Assembly (NCBI GenBank): GCA_963796275.1
Contig: CAWCKY010000003.1
Coordinates: 1,376,001-1,440,000, forward strand
Source: an uncultured Acidobacteriota bacterium
GTDB taxonomy: Bacteria; Acidobacteriota; Blastocatellia; RBC074
DNA length: 64,000 nucleotides
Reading direction: 5' to 3'
A program made the position numbers and the translations under genes. This document shows positions 2,341 through 45,918 of the stretch, in pieces. Within the stretch, counting starts at the first letter, position 1. Each line of letters begins with the position of its first letter. Below the pieces are notes generated by a model that was given only the letters and a program-made list of their open reading frames with translations, made no database searches and was not told the DNA's origin.

Positions 2341-2547
2341 AGCCCCCAAGGGGCGCCGATATAGTAGCCAAGGGAGCAGCGAAGCGTAGCCCCTGGTAAG
2401 TATAAGTGAGTCGTCAAGCCCTGTTGTAGGGGCGCAATAAATCGTTTCGCTATCACGCCCTTCAGGGCTTTATGATTCTTGGCGATGTGTTCCAGGGGCT
2501 CCGCTTTGCTCCACCCCTGGCTATTATATTGGCGCCCCTTCGGGGCT
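2341..2547. repeat. ~207-bp nested palindromic REPIN/MITE-like element
   Basis: 56-bp imperfect inverted arms at 2341-2396 and 2492-2547, with an inner aagccctg...cagggctt pair. Confidence 0.8.
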
Positions 2548-15825: not shown

Positions 15826-15841
15826 TGGCACAGCTATTGCA
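15826..15841 (+). promoter_or_regulatory. Sigma54 -24/-12 promoter with no downstream gene
   Basis: TGGCAC-agcta-TTGCA, exact consensus and spacing. Confidence 0.65.
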
Positions 15842-24108: not shown

Positions 24109-24211
24109 CAATGAATAATGGATAATTGATAATGGATAATTGATAATGCGAATCCTCAGTGGCGACAATCTATTCGAATTATCAATTATCCATTATCAAT
24201 TATCCATTATT
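24109..24211. repeat. Inverted heptamer tandem repeats (ATAATGG/ATAATTG versus CCATTAT/CAATTAT)
   Basis: aatgaataatggataattgataatggataattgataatg ... aattatcaattatccattatcaattatccatt. Confidence 0.85.
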
Positions 24212-25151
24212 GTTTCTTCTTGTTCGCGTAATAACCTTGCTTGGTGCGAATGTTCAGTTGTGGGCGCGCGACGCGGACATCGATCGCCCGCCAGCGGCCG
24301 TCCAGTCGCTCGTTCGATGATGAGTAAGAGAGCGTGTACTGGTTGCGCAACTCAATGACGGTGTTAGCGAATGCCTCGCGAAGCTTCGCCCCCCCGGGAT
24401 TGCGGAAGAATCTGCCGCCGGACTTTTCGGCCATGGTCTTCATCACTTCCGCACTTTTTTCGCGAATATTCGTATGGTTAACTGCGGAATCGGTCATATC
24501 GATGGCATAGATCATCGCATTCGCCGCAATCGCTTTTTTGATCGCCTGATCCATTGATGCCCGGCTATCTGTATCTCCTCCATCGGAGGCGATGAGGATG
24601 GCACGGCGGCGCTCGGGTCGTTTCGCAAGGTCCTCGGAGGCTTGGACGATCGCATCATAGAGAGGAGTTTTTCCCTCTGCTTGCAGATCCCAGACCGAGT
24701 CGGGGACCTCGCGCACCTCGGTGAAATCCTGCATTTTCTTTACTTTTTTTTCTTTGGTTCCGCCGAAAGTGTAAATCGCGAAAGTATCGCCTTCGCGTAT
24801 GCCGTCGATGAAATTGACGCAGGCCGCTCGTCCGAGAGTCAGCTTATGCTCCATGCTTGCGCTGGCATCCAGTAAGATGGCGGCGGCAAATGGCGTCTCT
24901 TCGAAAGAGAAACTGAGAATCTCCTGCTGCTTGCTATCTTCGAGAATGCGGAAGTCCGCGGCTTTCAGGTCGGGTACGTAGCGATCGTTAAGATCGGAGA
25001 TTGTCACATTGAGGACAACAAGGTTAGTCTCGACAGAAATCGTATCATCGACGGCATCGGACTTTTTCTCCTGATCCTGCTGTTGCGCGTTTATCGGCGA
25101 CAGGACCAGAGCGAGAATCAGAACTAGTGTGGGGGCTAATCTGCGATGCAT
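24207..25151 (-). CDS. Exported VWA-domain protein (acidobacterial type)
   Basis: MIDAS DASAS, TPLYDA, SDGGD, SGGR and ELRNQYTLSY. Confidence 0.88.
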   Translation of the reverse strand: MHRRLAPTLVLILALVLSPINAQQQDQEKKSDAVDDTISVETNLVVLNVTISDLNDRYVPDLKAADFRILEDSKQQEILSFSFEETPFAAAILLDASASMEHKLTLGRAACVNFIDGIREGDTFAIYTFGGTKEKKVKKMQDFTEVREVPDSVWDLQAEGKTPLYDAIVQASEDLAKRPERRRAILIASDGGDTDSRASMDQAIKKAIAANAMIYAIDMTDSAVNHTNIREKSAEVMKTMAEKSGGRFFRNPGGAKLREAFANTVIELRNQYTLSYSSSNERLDGRWRAIDVRVARPQLNIRTKQGYYANKKKQ

Positions 25152-25154
25152 AGT

Positions 25155-25652
25155 TCAATTGAGGTACCTTCGAAGAAGTTTGGTGAGCTGTATGACCTCA
25201 GTCGCGTCGCCGACCACTGCGAGGGAAATTACACGTCTCGACGTTTTGGCCAGATTTTCATTCAGTCGTTCACTCACCACGCATAATTGCTTGATTGCCT
25301 CCTCCAGGTTAGCGGGATGCGAATCGAGCGGCTCATCCTCCGAGCCGCCGGAATCCGAACGGATCTGGCGGGCGAATTTTTCGATATTTTTGAGCCTCTT
25401 TTCAGTCGCGCGCGGCAGCTGAGTCCGGCCATGCAAATCTTTCAAAAGCAGATTGGCTTCCTCTTCGATCTGCTCCCCTTTTTCCAGAATCTTCTTATGC
25501 TCGTTCTCTTCACGCTTGATCTGCATGCGCTTGAGCGTATCGAGCATGGTTTCGTTCTGTTCCTCGGGTATTGTCTGTTCTGAACTGACTACTTGCCCGC
25601 TGGCGCTAGAAGCGAGGAAGAGAAGCATAAAGACGAGGAAGTATGTGATCAT
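25155..25652 (-). CDS. Hypothetical exported helical protein
   Basis: Signal peptide; in an operon with its neighbours. Confidence 0.7.
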   Translation of the reverse strand: MITYFLVFMLLFLASSASGQVVSSEQTIPEEQNETMLDTLKRMQIKREENEHKKILEKGEQIEEEANLLLKDLHGRTQLPRATEKRLKNIEKFARQIRSDSGGSEDEPLDSHPANLEEAIKQLCVVSERLNENLAKTSRRVISLAVVGDATEVIQLTKLLRRYLN

Positions 25653-25666
25653 AGCGCACCGCTCTT

Positions 25667-26242
25667 TCAATATTCGCAGTTCAGGATACGCCGCGATGGA
25701 CGCTGACTGCTCGTCTTGACGCTCATATCAATGCCCAGGACCTTGCCTGCTATACCCCGTAACACTTCATCTTCAACCCTGCCGTTTGACTGACAGGCGA
25801 CCCATTTATTGCCTTCGAACGCGTCGGCGATACGCCCGTCGATGCGGGCGAAGACGAAGAGATGCGAACGCTTTTGATCGATCGGAGTCACCGTTATCTC
25901 GAGGACAAACCGGCCCGCCGTCCAGTTCCGAACCTCGTCGGCCGGCAAAGTGGCTAGATATTCGAGGTCTGTTCGCGTCGTGATGCCTTTACTGAACACA
26001 ACCGGAAGGGTGACCATCTTACCTTCGCGCGGCTTGCTCAAAGCCTCATCGAGCTTGATGTCGCACGTCTTAAGAATATCGCGAACGCTTTCAAGAATCA
26101 GTTCGCGCGGAAGATTAATGGTGAATGGATTATCGAGCGGAGGTTCCGGTTTGGGCCGATCGATCTGGATCTGCGCCTGGCTGATAGTGGACAGAAAGCA
26201 AATACCGATGATGGTTAGCAAGCATAATCTCAATTTTTTCAT
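25667..26242 (-). CDS. Hypothetical exported protein
   Basis: Signal peptide ending SQA; in an operon with the VWA gene. Confidence 0.7.
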   Translation of the reverse strand: MKKLRLCLLTIIGICFLSTISQAQIQIDRPKPEPPLDNPFTINLPRELILESVRDILKTCDIKLDEALSKPREGKMVTLPVVFSKGITTRTDLEYLATLPADEVRNWTAGRFVLEITVTPIDQKRSHLFVFARIDGRIADAFEGNKWVACQSNGRVEDEVLRGIAGKVLGIDMSVKTSSQRPSRRILNCEY

Positions 26243-26436
26243 ACGAGACACAATAGCAGGTTAGCTCAGAACTCATCAAGCCCAGTCTCTGTAAATGTCA
26301 ATGGAAAATTTTTCATATACATTTTGTAAGAATTACCTGATGAGACCTGTTGGGTTTCTCGCAACTAAATCGTCGAAATCTGCAATGAGCCTGATTTTAT
26401 TGGGTTTTACGCGTATTTTCGGATCAGCTCGATCTC

Positions 26437-26452
26437 TGGCACCAAGGTTGCA
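26437..26452 (+). promoter_or_regulatory. Sigma54 -24/-12 promoter
   Basis: TGGCAC-caagg-TTGCA, exact consensus. Confidence 0.75.
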
Positions 26453-26462
26453 CTTACCTGTG

Positions 26463-26586
26463 TGGGGCAACGAGATACCAGGTGGTAAACTCCACTGACG
26501 GTGTCAGGTGGTTACCAGGGTGAGGTAGGTAACCACAGTTATTGGGCGCTGCAAACATCCCACGGGTGCAGCGCCTATTATTTTTT
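26463..26586 (+). ncRNA. Candidate sigma54-dependent small RNA (~125 nt)
   Basis: Starts at the predicted TSS of the sigma54 promoter; hairpins ctgac/gtcag and gtggttacc/ggtaaccac; ends in a terminator stem tgggcgctgca/tgcagcgccta plus ttatttttt; no sense ORF. Confidence 0.6.
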
Positions 26587-26595
26587 CCAGCCAAC

Positions 26596-26624
26596 TTGAC
26601 ACGCCTTCTTTCCATAGCTATGTT
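26596..26624 (+). promoter_or_regulatory. Sigma70-type promoter of the M3-like gene
   Basis: TTGACA-N17-TATGTT. Confidence 0.55.
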
Positions 26625-26663
26625 GCCTGCCTTGACTTCTAATAAATAATCCGAGTGTAAAAA

Positions 26664-28160
26664 ATGCTGAGCGAATACCGCCAAAGCTATGGCGAATACC
26701 ATTCCGACATCAACCGCGAAGAGTATCTCTGCCGCTCCGGCCGCAAGCAGTGGCGTGAGACGGCGCAGATAACAGCCGAGTACAGCGATCTCTTTCGCCT
26801 ATCGGCAATAAAAGAACTCGAAGAGCTGCTCAAGGGGGTAGCCGAGTACCGCGAGACAGAACGGGCGAGCATCAAACGGCTTATCTCCTTCGCGGTAACC
26901 GGCAACCTCGCAACTCGAATCAGGGAGGTCACGGAAGAGATCGAAAGAATAGAAGATGTTTCGCAGATCGAATGGGATGGCCAGCTGATCGGCTTTCCGC
27001 AGTCGGCCGAGGTTTTAGCCAATGAGCCTGACGTTGTGCGCCGGCGCGACCTGATTGCTCGCCGCAACGATGTGATTAAAAGCGCCCAAGATGTTCGGGC
27101 TGAGAGGTTCGCGATAATGCAAGCCGCAGCGGTCGATCTCTCTTTCCCAAATTACTGTGTCATGGAGGGCCAATTAAACGGGATCGACTATCAAAGACTC
27201 GGGGAAGCCTCGAAGATAGTCCTGTCTAAGACCGAAAGCGATTACGTCACGGCGCTCTCGCGGTTATTTACGCGTAGGGTTGAAATATCGATCGACGATG
27301 CATCTCAGGCTGATCTGGGCTATCTGCATCGGTTCGATGATTTCGATCATTACTTCACGCCCGCACAGATGTTCTCGTCCTATAGCGCGATTTTTGCCGA
27401 CCTCGGCTTCAAGACGGAGAAGCAAGAGAATGTCAAGATCGACTCAGAAATGCGTCAGGGTAAAAAATACTCGTCTTTCTGTTCGCCGATACGTGTTCCC
27501 GAAGAGATCAAGCTGGTGATCGGATTGGCGGGCGGGCAGTTGAATTACCGGGAATTCCTGCGCGCTGCGGGCCGGGCACAGAATTACGCCTGGACTTCCG
27601 CTCGTCTATATCCGGAATTCCGCATCGCGAAAGATCGAGCGGTGAAGGCGGGCTGGGGAATGCTGTTGGAAAACCTGTTTTATGACAGGAATTGGCTGTC
27701 GGGGACGTTCGGTTTTAAAGACAGCGAATGGTTCCGTCACGTACTCGGCGTGTTGCACTTGATGGCGGTCCGCACGGCCGCGGCGAAACTCGACTATGAA
27801 TTGGTTTTCCACTCCGGCAGCGGAAATACCGGCGCCCTCTATGCCGAATTGATGACCGACGCGGTGCGGGTGAAGTTCGATGAAACCGGGCATCTGCGCG
27901 ACGTGAGCGATCATTTTCATCCAGCCGACTACCTGAGGGCCTGCGCGCTCGAATCGCAATTGCGCGAGCATCTGAAATCGAAATTCGGTCTGCGCTGGTG
28001 GGCTTCACGCAAGGCGGGTGAGATGCTGATCGATCTGTGGAATACGGGTGATCGTTATACGGCGGAAGAGCTGGCATCCCTGATAGGATTGGGAAGATTG
28101 GATTTCGACTGGCTGGCGACAGAGTTGCTCGATCGCTTGCAAATGAGTAAGGAAGAATAA
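26664..28160 (+). CDS. M3/M32-like zincin homolog lacking HExxH (probable pseudo-peptidase)
   Basis: KKYSSFCSPIRVPEEIKL, GGQLNYREFL-RAAGR-AQNYA and DYLRACALESQLREHL...FGLRWW. Confidence 0.65.
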   Translation: MLSEYRQSYGEYHSDINREEYLCRSGRKQWRETAQITAEYSDLFRLSAIKELEELLKGVAEYRETERASIKRLISFAVTGNLATRIREVTEEIERIEDVSQIEWDGQLIGFPQSAEVLANEPDVVRRRDLIARRNDVIKSAQDVRAERFAIMQAAAVDLSFPNYCVMEGQLNGIDYQRLGEASKIVLSKTESDYVTALSRLFTRRVEISIDDASQADLGYLHRFDDFDHYFTPAQMFSSYSAIFADLGFKTEKQENVKIDSEMRQGKKYSSFCSPIRVPEEIKLVIGLAGGQLNYREFLRAAGRAQNYAWTSARLYPEFRIAKDRAVKAGWGMLLENLFYDRNWLSGTFGFKDSEWFRHVLGVLHLMAVRTAAAKLDYELVFHSGSGNTGALYAELMTDAVRVKFDETGHLRDVSDHFHPADYLRACALESQLREHLKSKFGLRWWASRKAGEMLIDLWNTGDRYTAEELASLIGLGRLDFDWLATELLDRLQMSKEE

Positions 28161-28320
28161 TAAACGCGAAAAACGCAGAAAACGAATTGCCGGAAGAGGA
28201 ACTTATGGTTCGCTCGGGTTGAGGACGCCCGGGCTAGATCAAAGGCTTAGGCGGCAACGAAACCGCATTTTAGAAATCCGGTTCGAACTGAGCGAACCGG
28301 GAGTAGGAAAGGGGGTAGCG

Positions 28321-29421
28321 GTGCAATCGAAGATTGTTCACGTTGCGCTCGGTGAGCGCAGCTATGATATCGCCATCGCCGGTGGCGCATTGTTGCGGGT
28401 CGGGGAACTAACGCGCGATGCGCTAGGTGACAAGGCGCGCCGGGTCGCGGTCATCACAAATCCCGTAGTCGACTCTTATTACGGCAAAGGAGTCGTCAAG
28501 AGTTTGAAACGCGCGGGATTCGTCGTCCTCACACATCTGATCGCCGATGGCGAGCCCGCCAAGTCGATCCGCACAGCCGAACGGCTCTGGGCCTTTTTAA
28601 TCTCGCATCGGTTTGAACGAGGCGACGGGATTATCGCGCTCGGCGGCGGCGTGGTGGGGGACCTTGCCGGATTTGCCGCTGCGACGTTTCTGCGTGGAAT
28701 GGATTACGTTCAGGTTCCCACCACCCTGCTTGCTCAGATCGATAGTTCGGTCGGCGGCAAAACGGGCGTCAATCACGCGCTGGGTAAAAACCTGATCGGC
28801 GCTTTTCATCATCCGCGGGCGGTCGTGATCGATCCGCTCACTTTAAGGACGCTTCCGGAACGCGAGCTGCGCGCTGGGCTTTACGAAGCGATCAAGTATG
28901 GAATCATCAGAGACAGAGACCTGGCTGTCTTCATACGCGATAACATAGGGGCGATCGATGCTCTCGACCCCCAGACGTTGATCCGTATCATCGCTCGTTG
29001 CTGCGAGATAAAGGTCGATGTGGTGGTGGCCGACGAACGAGAATCGGGATTGCGCCGCATCCTCAACTTCGGACACACCGTGGGCCACGCGCTCGAAGCG
29101 GTGACGTCATATCGGCGATTGAAACACGGCGAGGCGGTCGGCTATGGCATGAAGTGCGCCGCGGCGATCGCAGAGAAAGCCGGAGTAGTTGCGCAACCTG
29201 ATGCCGAGGCGATCAGAAGCGGCATCGATGCGCTCGGAAGGTTGCCGCGCATCTCTGATTTGAAGGCAAAGGATGTTATAGCGGCGATGGCCCACGACAA
29301 GAAAGTAGCACAAGGGAAACTCCACTTCGTCCTGCCTACCAGGGTTGGTGAGGTTGTGGTGCGTGACGATATCGCACCAGCAGTGATCCGCGCGGCCGTA
29401 CGGGAATTGATTGCGGATTGA
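28321..29421 (+). CDS. aroB: 3-dehydroquinate synthase
   Basis: GGGVVGD, PTTLLAQIDSSVGGKTG, KNLIGAF, LNFGHTVGHA, HGEAV and DKK. Confidence 0.97.
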   Translation: MQSKIVHVALGERSYDIAIAGGALLRVGELTRDALGDKARRVAVITNPVVDSYYGKGVVKSLKRAGFVVLTHLIADGEPAKSIRTAERLWAFLISHRFERGDGIIALGGGVVGDLAGFAAATFLRGMDYVQVPTTLLAQIDSSVGGKTGVNHALGKNLIGAFHHPRAVVIDPLTLRTLPERELRAGLYEAIKYGIIRDRDLAVFIRDNIGAIDALDPQTLIRIIARCCEIKVDVVVADERESGLRRILNFGHTVGHALEAVTSYRRLKHGEAVGYGMKCAAAIAEKAGVVAQPDAEAIRSGIDALGRLPRISDLKAKDVIAAMAHDKKVAQGKLHFVLPTRVGEVVVRDDIAPAVIRAAVRELIAD

Positions 29422-42625: not shown

Positions 42626-44197
42626 ATGTCTTTTAAACCGACACTCACCACTCAACTATCGCAGCGTCTGGTACTGACGCCGCAGTTGCGCCAGCGGATT
42701 GAGATGTTGCAGATGACCAAGCTCGAATTGGGCGAACTGGTTACGCAACAGCTCGGTGAGAATCCCGTGCTGGAAGAGCTACCGCCTGAGGAGGTGGCGG
42801 TTTCCCCTGATCTTGCCAACGTCGACTTTCCCGAAACATCCAGTAATCTCATCAATGGCTCGGCCGAGGTCCCTGAAACCCAGTTGACGAGTGTCGAGCC
42901 CGGCTCCACTTATGAACAGAATATGGGGGAGTTTACGCAGGTTCCGGGTGAAGGGACTCGCGAGAGCGAAACCGTCGAGTCTCGTGAACCCGAGATCGGC
43001 GAACGCGATTCCTTCGAGGAGATCGATTTCGGCAGTACCTTTGAAGAATATCTCGATCCCGGCTATAGGACGCGCGAGACGGAGGTCAAGGACACACCTT
43101 CATTCGAGCAATTTCTCTCATCCGAGCAAAGCCTGGCCGATTATCTCAACTGGCAATTACAGTTGACGGTGACAACTCCCGAAGTCTTTGACGCAGCGGA
43201 GGCGATCATCGGAAGCATGAACGATGATGGGTTCCTCGACGAGCCGCTCGAAGAGATCGCTGCCATCGGTCCCTGGCCGATGGAGACGGTTGAGAAGGCG
43301 CTGAAGATCGTGCAGCAGTTCGACCCGGCGGGCATCGGGGGGCGCGATCTGCAGGAATGTCTGTTATTGCAATTGATACATCACGGTTATGGCGACAGGC
43401 TGGCCGCCCGGATCATCCGCGATTATCCAGTCTCGAAGCTGCAAAACCATAAATTGCCGGAACTGGCTAAAGAGCTGGGGGTTAGCGTCGAGCAGCTGGC
43501 TCAGGAGTTGAAATTGATCCGCCAGCTCGAGCCTCATCCCGGCCGCAAGTTTGCGCCGCGGGATGCGCAGTATATCGAACCCGAGGTTTACATCGAGAAG
43601 ATCGAAGATGAGTATGTCATCCGATTCAATGACGATGGGCTACCGCAACTGCGCATCAACAAGCAGTATCGCCAGATGATGGAGAATAAAGAGACGTCGA
43701 AAGAGACGCGCGATTACATCAAGGACAAGTTCCGCTCGGCCGTAGACCTGCTCAAAAACATCGAGCATCGCAAGCAGACGATATACAAAGTATGTGAACG
43801 GATTGTGGAGCGCCAGCGCGATTTCCTCGACAAAGGAGTTGAATTTCTCAAGCCGATGATGCTTAAAGACATCTCGGAAGACATCGGCATGCACCTTTCG
43901 ACTGTCTCGCGCGTAGTCAACGGCAAGTATGCGCACACGCCTCAAGGCGTGATCGAGTTGCGGCGCTTTTTCACCGAGGGGATGGTCAATGATGATGGCG
44001 AGGAGGTATCGACCCGCATCATCAAGCTCAAGATAAAAAAGATGATAGAAGCCGAAGACCCGCGCGAACCGTTGACCGACGACCTGATCGCCGCGCGTCT
44101 GGCTCAGGAAGGGCAAAAGCTTTCTCGGCGCACCGTCGCCAAGTACCGCGACCAGATGAAGATTCCCGGATCGCGCGAACGGCGTCAGGTAGTTTGA
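42626..44197 (+). CDS. rpoN: RNA polymerase sigma-54 factor
   Basis: [28 protein letters not shown] and the RpoN box SRRTVAKYR. Confidence 0.97.
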
Positions 44198-45057: not shown

Positions 45058-45918
45058 ATGGTTCCACAACTCATCATCATAACGGGTCTCAGCGGATCCG
45101 GAATGTCTTCAGCGATGAATGTCTTTGAAGACATGGGTTATTTCTGCGTTGATAATCTGCCGGTGCAACTGATCAATAGTTTCGTGCACCTCTTCGAAAT
45201 GAAGGAGTCGGGGATTACGCGCGCGGCGCTCAGCGTCAACGTTCGGGAAGGGGATTTTCTCAATACTTTTCCGCAGGTTTATACGCAGCTCCGCGAGCGC
45301 TCCGATCTGGAGACGACTGTCATATTTATGGAGGGGCGGGACGCGGTTTTGCACCGCCGCTACAGCGAGACGCGGCGGCCTCATCCGCTGGGCGAGGGGA
45401 GCGTTCTTGAAGCGATCACTGAGGAGCGTAAAATGCTGGAGCCGATCAGAGCTCTGGTCGATGTGGTGATCGATACATCCGATCACACAGTTCATACGCT
45501 GCGCTCCTGGCTCAAAAATCGTTTCGCGCCCGAGAGCGCGGAGACGAAAACTGAAATCAGCGTGGTGAGTTTCGGCTTCAAATTCGGGGTGCCGCTCGAC
45601 GTGGATCTGCTGTTCGATGTTCGCTTCCTTCCGAATCCGCACTTCGTGCCGGAATTGAAAGGTTATACCGGAAACGATCAGCAAGTCGTCGAATATCTGA
45701 ATAAGAGCCCTGAGGTCGACGAGACGATCGGCCGCTTCAACGATCTGCTCGATTACCTCATGCCTCTTTATCAGCGCGAAGGTAAAAGTTATGTCACCGT
45801 CGGCGTCGGTTGTACGGGCGGTAAGCATCGCTCAGTCGCTGTAGCCAATGCCCTCGGCAAACATCTCAATCGCGAGGGCTATCACGCCCGCGTGATTCAT
45901 CGGGATGTGAAGAAATAA
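45058..45918 (+). CDS. rapZ: RapZ/YvcJ family protein
   Basis: TGLSGSG, CVDNLP, ETRRPHP, SFGFKFG, DVRFLPNP and GCTGGKHRSV. Confidence 0.95.
   Translation: MVPQLIIITGLSGSGMSSAMNVFEDMGYFCVDNLPVQLINSFVHLFEMKESGITRAALSVNVREGDFLNTFPQVYTQLRERSDLETTVIFMEGRDAVLHRRYSETRRPHPLGEGSVLEAITEERKMLEPIRALVDVVIDTSDHTVHTLRSWLKNRFAPESAETKTEISVVSFGFKFGVPLDVDLLFDVRFLPNPHFVPELKGYTGNDQQVVEYLNKSPEVDETIGRFNDLLDYLMPLYQREGKSYVTVGVGCTGGKHRSVAVANALGKHLNREGYHARVIHRDVKK

Follow-up and report, generated by a model that had tools for sequence, protein, structure and literature searches.

The window analyzed here, a 64,000-nucleotide stretch of the genome of an uncultured Acidobacteriota bacterium, contains an exact match to the sigma-54 promoter consensus (TGGCAC-N5-TTGCA) upstream of a gene for a 498-aa protein. 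The roughly 124 nt that follow it comprise three hairpins and a terminator, and the features of this region are collected in Table 1. A preliminary description of the locus, made from its sequence, had listed the promoter, the motifs CAGGTGGT (at 26479 and 26505) and CAGGGTGAGGTAGGT (at 26516), a GC-rich stem (about 26543–26553 with 26567–26577), the T-run behind it (26581–26586) and a promoter of the downstream gene; all of these elements are present. It had also placed rpoN and rapZ in the window, where they are found at 43712–44188 and 45067–45531, respectively, rpoN being the one copy in the genome. Its assignment of the DNA to an acidobacterium agrees with a neighboring VWA-domain gene (24207–25151) that matches TIGR03436 (acidobact_VWFA). 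Adjoining the VWA gene, the minus strand at 25155–26251 encodes two small proteins of 171 and 194 aa, predicted to be secreted and with no family match, homologues of which lie divergently upstream of the RNA in 18–21 loci of the window's family.

Table 1. Features of the RNA locus and further copies in the same genome (window positions unless a contig is given).
Feature	Position	Strand	Remarks
Distal enhancer-like box GGAAAATTTTTC	26303..26314	+	General form G-W-A-A-N3-T-T-W-C; recurs in all four families
Proximal enhancer-like box GTAAGAATTAC	26326..26336	+	Palindromic GTA-N5-TAC; candidate activator-binding site
A/T-rich block GCCTGATTTTATTGGGTTTTACGCG	26389..26413	+	Weak hairpin and T-run; between enhancer and promoter
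Sigma-54 (-24/-12) promoter TGGCACCAAGGTTGCA	26437..26452	+	Exact consensus; fixed spacing in 66/70 copies
Predicted small RNA	26463..26586	+	About 124 nt; -24/-12 spacing gives the inferred start, terminator U-tract the end
5' tail GUGGGGCAACGAGA	26462..26475	+	Unpaired, invariant, candidate seed; GGGGCAA and GAGA at least 97% conserved (72 copies, four families)
Hairpin P1, two-part	26474..26505	+	26474–26479/26500–26505 and 26481–26485/26492–26496; contains first CAGGTGG
Hairpin P2, 9 bp	26508..26536	+	Apical loop AGGGUGAGGUA (26517–26527); loop core GGUGAGG invariant
Intrinsic terminator	26543..26586	+	11-bp stem; near-invariant loop UCCCAC (26558–26563); U-tract 26581–26586
Sigma-70-like promoter TTGACA-N17-TATGTT of the 498-aa gene	26596..26624	+	10/12 matches; consensus match only
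498-aa protein gene	26664–28160	+	No Pfam/NCBIfam match
Dehydroquinate-synthase-like gene	28219–29421		Adjacency to 498-aa gene kept in at least two families
Copy B	C3:36330–36463	-	
Copy C	C4:701135–701267		
Copy D	C6:1984197–1984329		Most diverged of the four copies

The 128-nt stretch starting at 26463 is predicted to fold into three hairpins with an energy of -52.3 kcal/mol, as compared with -37.9 ± 3.8 kcal/mol for shuffled sequences (z -3.82; none of 200 shuffles was as good). Frequent G-U pairs in the 72-copy alignment described below fix the strand of the element as plus. Single-base insertions and deletions between close relatives exclude a coding frame, and no conserved reading frame runs through the element. 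A small open reading frame behind the Shine-Dalgarno-like loop of P2 was considered separately and discarded: no start codon is suitably spaced from it, and the linker differs in length among copies.

Three further copies (B, C and D) accompany the window's copy (A) in the genome. To survey relatives, a covariance model (A1/R1) was built from 30 copies, one per genome, one row coming from the unpublished genome G004; it matches the window at 26459–26588 with 145.5 bits. A second model (A4/R2) comprised 72 copies from all four families that carry the RNA and contained no unpublished rows. With the first model, 82 of 87 genomes in the window's own family were positive, covering all 17 genera and 53 of the 55 high-quality genomes, with 1–11 matches per genome. 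In a sample of the class, full-length matches were obtained in 100 of 151 genomes (a tally that takes in the unpublished genome G185) and in four of ten families: f1 (38/38), f6 (33/34), f9 (9/9) and f3 (19/38). No match was found in f2 (0/1), f4 (0/14), f5 (0/3), f7 (0/8), f8 (0/4) or f10 (0/1), nor, with the second model, in any of 139 genomes from other classes of the phylum, all of these samples having been searched with Infernal's stricter filters, under which "not found" is not equivalent to absent. That phylum sample also had 12 genomes from the own class, seven of which were positive. Tandem copies about 2.9 kb apart were seen in two relatives (G028:C330:37846–40848 and G036:C12:94128–97116), the latter genome carrying 11 copies in total.

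The structure was assessed by comparison of these copies. RNAalifold applied to the 30 copies of the window's family gave 31 base pairs, corresponding to the two-part P1, the 9-bp P2 and the 11-bp terminator stem. In the 72-copy alignment, 97.9% of the cells were standard pairs versus 82.9% in shuffles, and changes on both sides were observed at 29 of the 31 pairs, carried by 311 cells, versus 15.5 in shuffles (none of 500 reached the observed value) and 4–13 in slid controls. As the alignment used for these counts had been fitted to the model, it favors the structure; the slid controls and a plain MAFFT alignment agree with it on the structure. P1 is invariant in sequence inside the window's family, and across families both partners differ in 10 of its 11 pairs. 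Both sides also change in 8 of the 9 pairs of P2, where 99.4% of the cells are paired, and in all 11 pairs of the terminator stem. The fold predicted from the sequences is thus supported by covariation, and the comparative evidence very strongly supports a real and conserved RNA family. Conservation in relatives, a check that the preliminary description had named, extends in this way across four families.

Taken alone, the promoter says little. With up to one mismatch allowed, the window contains three matches versus 1.73 expected, a number reached by 29 of 100 shuffles, and there are 51 TGGCAY-N5-TTGCH sites in the genome. A lone sigma-54 match is therefore within chance, and the case rests on comparison with other genomes. 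Across the four families, GGCA[CT]-N5-TTGC is found 22–24 nt ahead of the conserved 5' block of the RNA in 66 of 70 distinct copies (one of the 70 being from the unpublished genome G004), and the remaining four deviate at one position each. A second exact consensus match, TGGCACAGCTATTGCA, lies at 15826–15841 (+) in the window, with no GTAAGAATTAC-type box upstream.

Upstream of the promoter, two and sometimes three 11-bp boxes of the form GWAA-N3-TTWC occur in all four families in family-specific variants. Relative to the -24 element, the pair lies upstream at distances of about 110 and 130 bp, the distal box being about 22 bp upstream of the proximal one, or about 32 bp in some copies of the window's family. 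Of 72 copies, 57 have GTA-N5-TAC between -175 and -95, with 48 of the boxes falling at -137 to -132; in the shuffle control, the number of such copies averaged 1.64 and never exceeded 6. The other 15 copies carry box variants, mostly one position off. In this genome, the combination of GTAAGAATT[AG]C with a sigma-54 promoter 96–99 nt downstream is limited to the four RNA copies. Enhancer-binding proteins classically use such a layout, in which palindromic sites come in pairs at a constant distance, here about 110 bp, from the -24 element. Two traits of a sigma-54-dependent small RNA gene were thus found here, namely a conserved promoter with -24 GG and -12 GC at the right distance and predicted activator sites upstream of it in all four families. 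The A/T-rich block between boxes and promoter is common to copies A, B and D and to many copies of the window's family, in some of which there is a clear GC hairpin with TTTT behind it; in other families, different blocks occupy this place. The A/T-rich block may represent a bend, an IHF-type site or an insulating terminator.

The multiple copies, and a sigma-54 consensus match that on its own is within chance, might also be expected from the remnant of a repeat or mobile element, or from a chance promoter beside a stable hairpin, with no RNA function. Compensatory changes in 29 of 31 pairs contradict this explanation, as do the conservation of the element across the class at syntenic positions and the conserved spacing of promoter and enhancer; neither transposase genes beside the genome's own copies nor terminal repeats were noticed on simple inspection. 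We regard such an origin as extremely improbable.

The candidate activator was sought among genes near the RNA and by distribution. No open reading frame for a GAFTGA-type enhancer-binding protein was found in 82 loci around RNA copies; the genome contains at least 35 such proteins. Presence and absence of activators were compared between G175 (RNA-positive, 10 activators) and G054 (RNA-negative, 11 activators). The one candidate singled out by this comparison, a 455-aa REC-AAA-HTH protein (C6:1875274–1876638), was rejected as activator on its distribution: relatives 58–69% identical to it occur in the RNA-negative families f4 (13/14), f7 (8/8) and f8 (4/4), and it was not found at E ≤1e-125 in 13 of the 38 genomes of the window's family. 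The GTA-N5-TAC palindrome may resemble the NorR box, GT-N7-AC.

The position of the RNA gene relative to its neighbors bears on whether it acts on its own or in cis. In three families, homologues of the 496–498-aa gene and/or of the dehydroquinate-synthase-like gene follow the best-scoring copy, as could be expected of a leader or attenuator of the downstream operon (498-aa and dehydroquinate-synthase-like genes), with the terminator serving as a riboswitch-like expression platform. However, copies B, C and D have unrelated neighbors, the gene downstream of B being convergent; DUF1385 and RF-1 genes follow the RNA at locus L063, and other lineages also differ downstream. Moreover, every copy conserves a strong terminator stem, no alternative antiterminator pairing was noticed in an unsystematic look at the alignments, and the downstream gene carries its own sigma-70-like promoter, which a consensus match supports as the preliminary description had proposed. 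Unrelated and convergent genes downstream of the paralogues argue against a leader, and the differing neighbors, the strong terminator everywhere and the separate downstream promoter together indicate a free-standing RNA. A cis-acting leader is hence quite improbable; a local role of the main copy, which keeps its place in three families, is conceivable. An independent, terminator-bounded non-coding unit behind a sigma-54 promoter, as first described, is thus what the comparison across genomes points to.

Some of these neighborhoods have features of their own. For the 498-aa protein, a protein atlas gave a lead to clusters named M3 oligoendopeptidase-F-like (score 0.98; Peptidase_M3 on 14–42% of the members). 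At the f3 loci L051–L060, the RNA gene is directly downstream of YbbR-domain and phosphoglucosamine-mutase-like (PGM/PMM) genes and upstream of the dehydroquinate-synthase-like gene.

Three unpaired elements are nearly invariant across the four families. The 5' tail, (G/A)(U/C)GGGGCAA(C)GAGA, begins exactly at the start given by the -24/-12 spacing (26463). The loop of P2, GGUGAGGA, has a core GGUGAGG(A) that is at least 97% conserved in the 72 copies. By reading of the alignment, 69 of the 72 have the terminator loop UCCCAC(G); L060, L075 and L077 are without it but retain tail and P2, and the f6 genomes in which L075 and L077 occur as second copies have a full copy too. On a possible pseudoknot that would pair the 5' GUGGGG with the UCCCAC loop, the alignment speaks neither for nor against: both are invariant, and the existing variants GCGGGG and AUGGGG are uncompensated.

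The preliminary description had pointed to repeated AGGUGG motifs and to a possible protein sponge. The repeats correspond to the 5' arms of P1b and P2, and they are fixed only inside the window's family; in the other three families covarying sequences replace them, which argues against a repeated protein-binding motif. The broader idea of a decoy, in which loops and P1 would bind an RNA-binding protein (a RapZ-like adaptor, Hfq or another) and titrate it as GlmY, CrcZ and CsrB do, draws on the loop and tail sequences invariant across four families, on the invariance of P1 in the window's family and on the UCCCAC-less variants L075 and L077, which keep tail and P2 and coexist with full copies, a situation that recalls the division of labor between GlmY and GlmZ. 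Invariance of P1 within the family and class-wide invariance of the loops would indeed fit recognition by a protein as well as base pairing. By contrast, each RNA has only a single GGA-type loop, no repeated binding motif is shared between families, and the GlmY, GlmZ, CrcZ, CsrB and Rsm models do not match. For a CsrA sponge of the CsrB/RsmX/Y/Z type, which was rejected, the single cross-family GGA loop and the lack of an Rfam match are joined by the lack of a PF02599 match, and thus of a CsrA gene, in the genome (94.7% complete). The proposal of a sponge with repeated AGGUGG finds no support, because these repeats are family-specific stem arms.

RapZ deserves separate mention, since a link to it had been raised as speculation. 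The gene lies 19 kb from the RNA in the window and about 4 kb from it in three relatives (G007:C45, G021:C185 and G031:C10), showing a loose synteny of the main copy with the rpoN–rapZ region. However, RapZ (RapZ-like_N) occurs in 150 of 151 genomes of the class, all RNA-negative families included, so that co-distribution with the RNA is absent and uninformative, and the link obtains no support. GlmZ-like targeting of glmS was also tested and rejected, because complementarity to the leader was not better in 18 RNA-positive than in 12 RNA-negative genomes (mean duplex energies, positive versus negative, -11.9/-12.3, -11.3/-13.0 and -7.4/-7.4 kcal/mol). In this genome, the glmS leader ranked at the 92nd percentile for the tail seed, the 94th for the P2 seed and the 5.7th for the terminator loop. 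The glmS gene itself (G000:C3:1188330–1190191, minus strand, outside the window) is matched in two pieces in different frames that overlap by 28 bases and cover profile positions 1–243 and 235–607, the result of a frameshift or else of a mistake in the assembly; glmU precedes it, as judged by a beta-helix-like C-terminus in the sequence. Taken together, we consider a decoy function unlikely.

Known RNA families were searched for relatives of the element. Rfam 15 gave no match in the whole window at gathering scores and, at E ≤10, only a chance match to CRISPR-DR22 in 26250–26700, outside the RNA. The best genome match to Acido-1 (RF01686) scored 20.2 bits and lies elsewhere than the RNA loci; Acido-Lenti-1 (RF01687) had 35 genome matches at E ≤1, five of them over the gathering score, and neither model matched any of the four copies in genome-wide scans. 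A sub-threshold Acido-Lenti-1 match (31.5 bits versus a gathering score of 37) is located at 2492–2547 (+) of the window. These two acidobacterial RNA motifs come from Weinberg et al. 2010 (PMC2864571) and are, like the RNA studied here, candidate non-coding RNAs with no tie to particular genes. No description of this RNA was found in the full-text literature searched, and the terms "Acidobacteri", "sRNA", "small RNA" and "non-coding" are all absent from the text of PMC12316311. With no known family or publication matching a conserved element, the novelty claimed for this acidobacterial small RNA stands, and what the sequences describe is solidly a new, widely distributed RNA family in a poorly studied phylum.

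Likenesses to characterized systems are instructive. The Qrr RNAs of Vibrio depend on LuxO and sigma-54, comprise 4–5 paralogues and require Hfq; they share a conserved 32-nt core, and the LuxO regulon consists largely of the qrr genes. Similarly, the acidobacterial RNA occurs as multicopy paralogues, each with a sigma-54 promoter and predicted upstream activator sites, is about 100–130 nt long with several hairpins, a terminator and invariant unpaired stretches, and has an arrangement of activator site and promoter limited in this genome to the RNA genes. Unlike Qrr, it belongs to a different phylum, does not match the Rfam Qrr model, has a GTA-N5-TAC box that differs from the LuxO site, and is not known to be tied to quorum sensing. 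GlmY and GlmZ of Enterobacteriaceae are a homologous pair that depends on sigma-54 and GlrR, uses the adaptor RapZ and targets glmS. The sigma-54 promoter with upstream activator sites, the three-hairpin architecture, the homologous variants with and without one motif in a single genome, and the presence of rpoN and rapZ in the same chromosomal region are shared with that pair. By contrast, the Rfam models GlmY_tke1 and GlmZ_SraJ do not match, the distribution of RapZ is unrelated to that of the RNA, and glmS leaders show no conserved complementarity. CrcZ and CrcY, sigma-54/CbrB-dependent sponges of Hfq/Crc, contain repeated A-rich CA motifs; A-rich repeats are absent from the sequence studied here, which also has no Rfam match to them. 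The Firmicutes RNAs LhrC1–5 (of Listeria), RsaE/RoxS and RNAIII use UCCC loops to pair with G-rich ribosome-binding sites. The RNA resembles these in its C-rich UCCC in hairpin loops, including that of the terminator, and, for LhrC, in copy number, but it is unrelated in sequence, phylum and promoter type, and exposed G-rich elements are conserved in it as well. By analogy, its mode of action would be that of Qrr, which are multicopy small RNAs dependent on sigma-54, or of homologous pairs such as GlmY/GlmZ, while it is a member of neither family.

The genome encodes Hfq (89.9 bits), and in every aligned copy the terminator U-tract is preceded by an A/U-rich linker. The hallmarks of the Hfq-dependent trans-acting class, a terminator U-tract, an A/U-rich single strand and an hfq gene, are thus found together, and binding of Hfq is predicted. 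Seeds formed by the C-rich loop of a terminator hairpin are known from other phyla. Potential targets were scanned with three seeds against 34,758 crude candidate start regions. No candidate stood out and the window's genes were not enriched; the antisense strands of the RNA genes themselves were the only loci complementary to tail and P2 loop together. GTGGGA occurred 190 times at ribosome-binding positions versus 94 in a control window, a count that is biased because the starts had been chosen by GGGA-like motifs.

Combined, these observations make it reasonably likely, on the basis of sequence comparison, that the locus encodes an undescribed trans-acting RNA, one of four paralogues, which is transcribed by enhancer-dependent sigma-54 RNA polymerase and base-pairs through exposed elements with the help of Hfq. 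An enhancer-binding protein seated on the pair of GWAA-N3-TTWC boxes that precede the -24 element by about 110 and 130 bp would activate the polymerase in response to some signal; transcription from TGGCAC-N5-TTGCA would start near 26463 and stop at the terminator (26543–26586). P1, P2 and the terminator hairpin would then form, leaving the GGGGCAA-GAGA tail, the GGUGAGGA loop and the UCCCAC loop exposed. The RNA probably makes use of these three invariant unpaired elements, one or more of which would pair in trans with mRNAs, and it is probably assisted by Hfq. Having several paralogues would raise its dosage or provide redundancy, as with other small RNAs that exist in multiple copies. A bolder extension of this trans-acting model, put forward here only tentatively, is that a dedicated enhancer-binding protein acts with sigma-54 on nothing but the 1–11 paralogous RNA genes throughout the class, so that, in a Qrr-like funnel, one signal from the environment or the population would be converted into post-transcriptional control, and that variants with and without the UCCCAC loop share regulator and decoy roles.

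Acidobacteria are among the most abundant bacteria of soils, and to our knowledge almost nothing is known about RNA-based regulation in them. In the table of one review, four annotated small RNAs are given for the phylum (PMC9029176). If true, the Qrr-like funnel would give this abundant, little-studied soil phylum its first defined regulatory RNA circuit. The family brings with it a complete conserved control region made of enhancer boxes, spacer and sigma-54 promoter. The RNA also constitutes a clean annotation marker for these genomes, with a covariance model ready for Rfam, and the activator of the GTA-N5-TAC box, the inducing signal and the genes controlled by the RNA become testable in cultured members.
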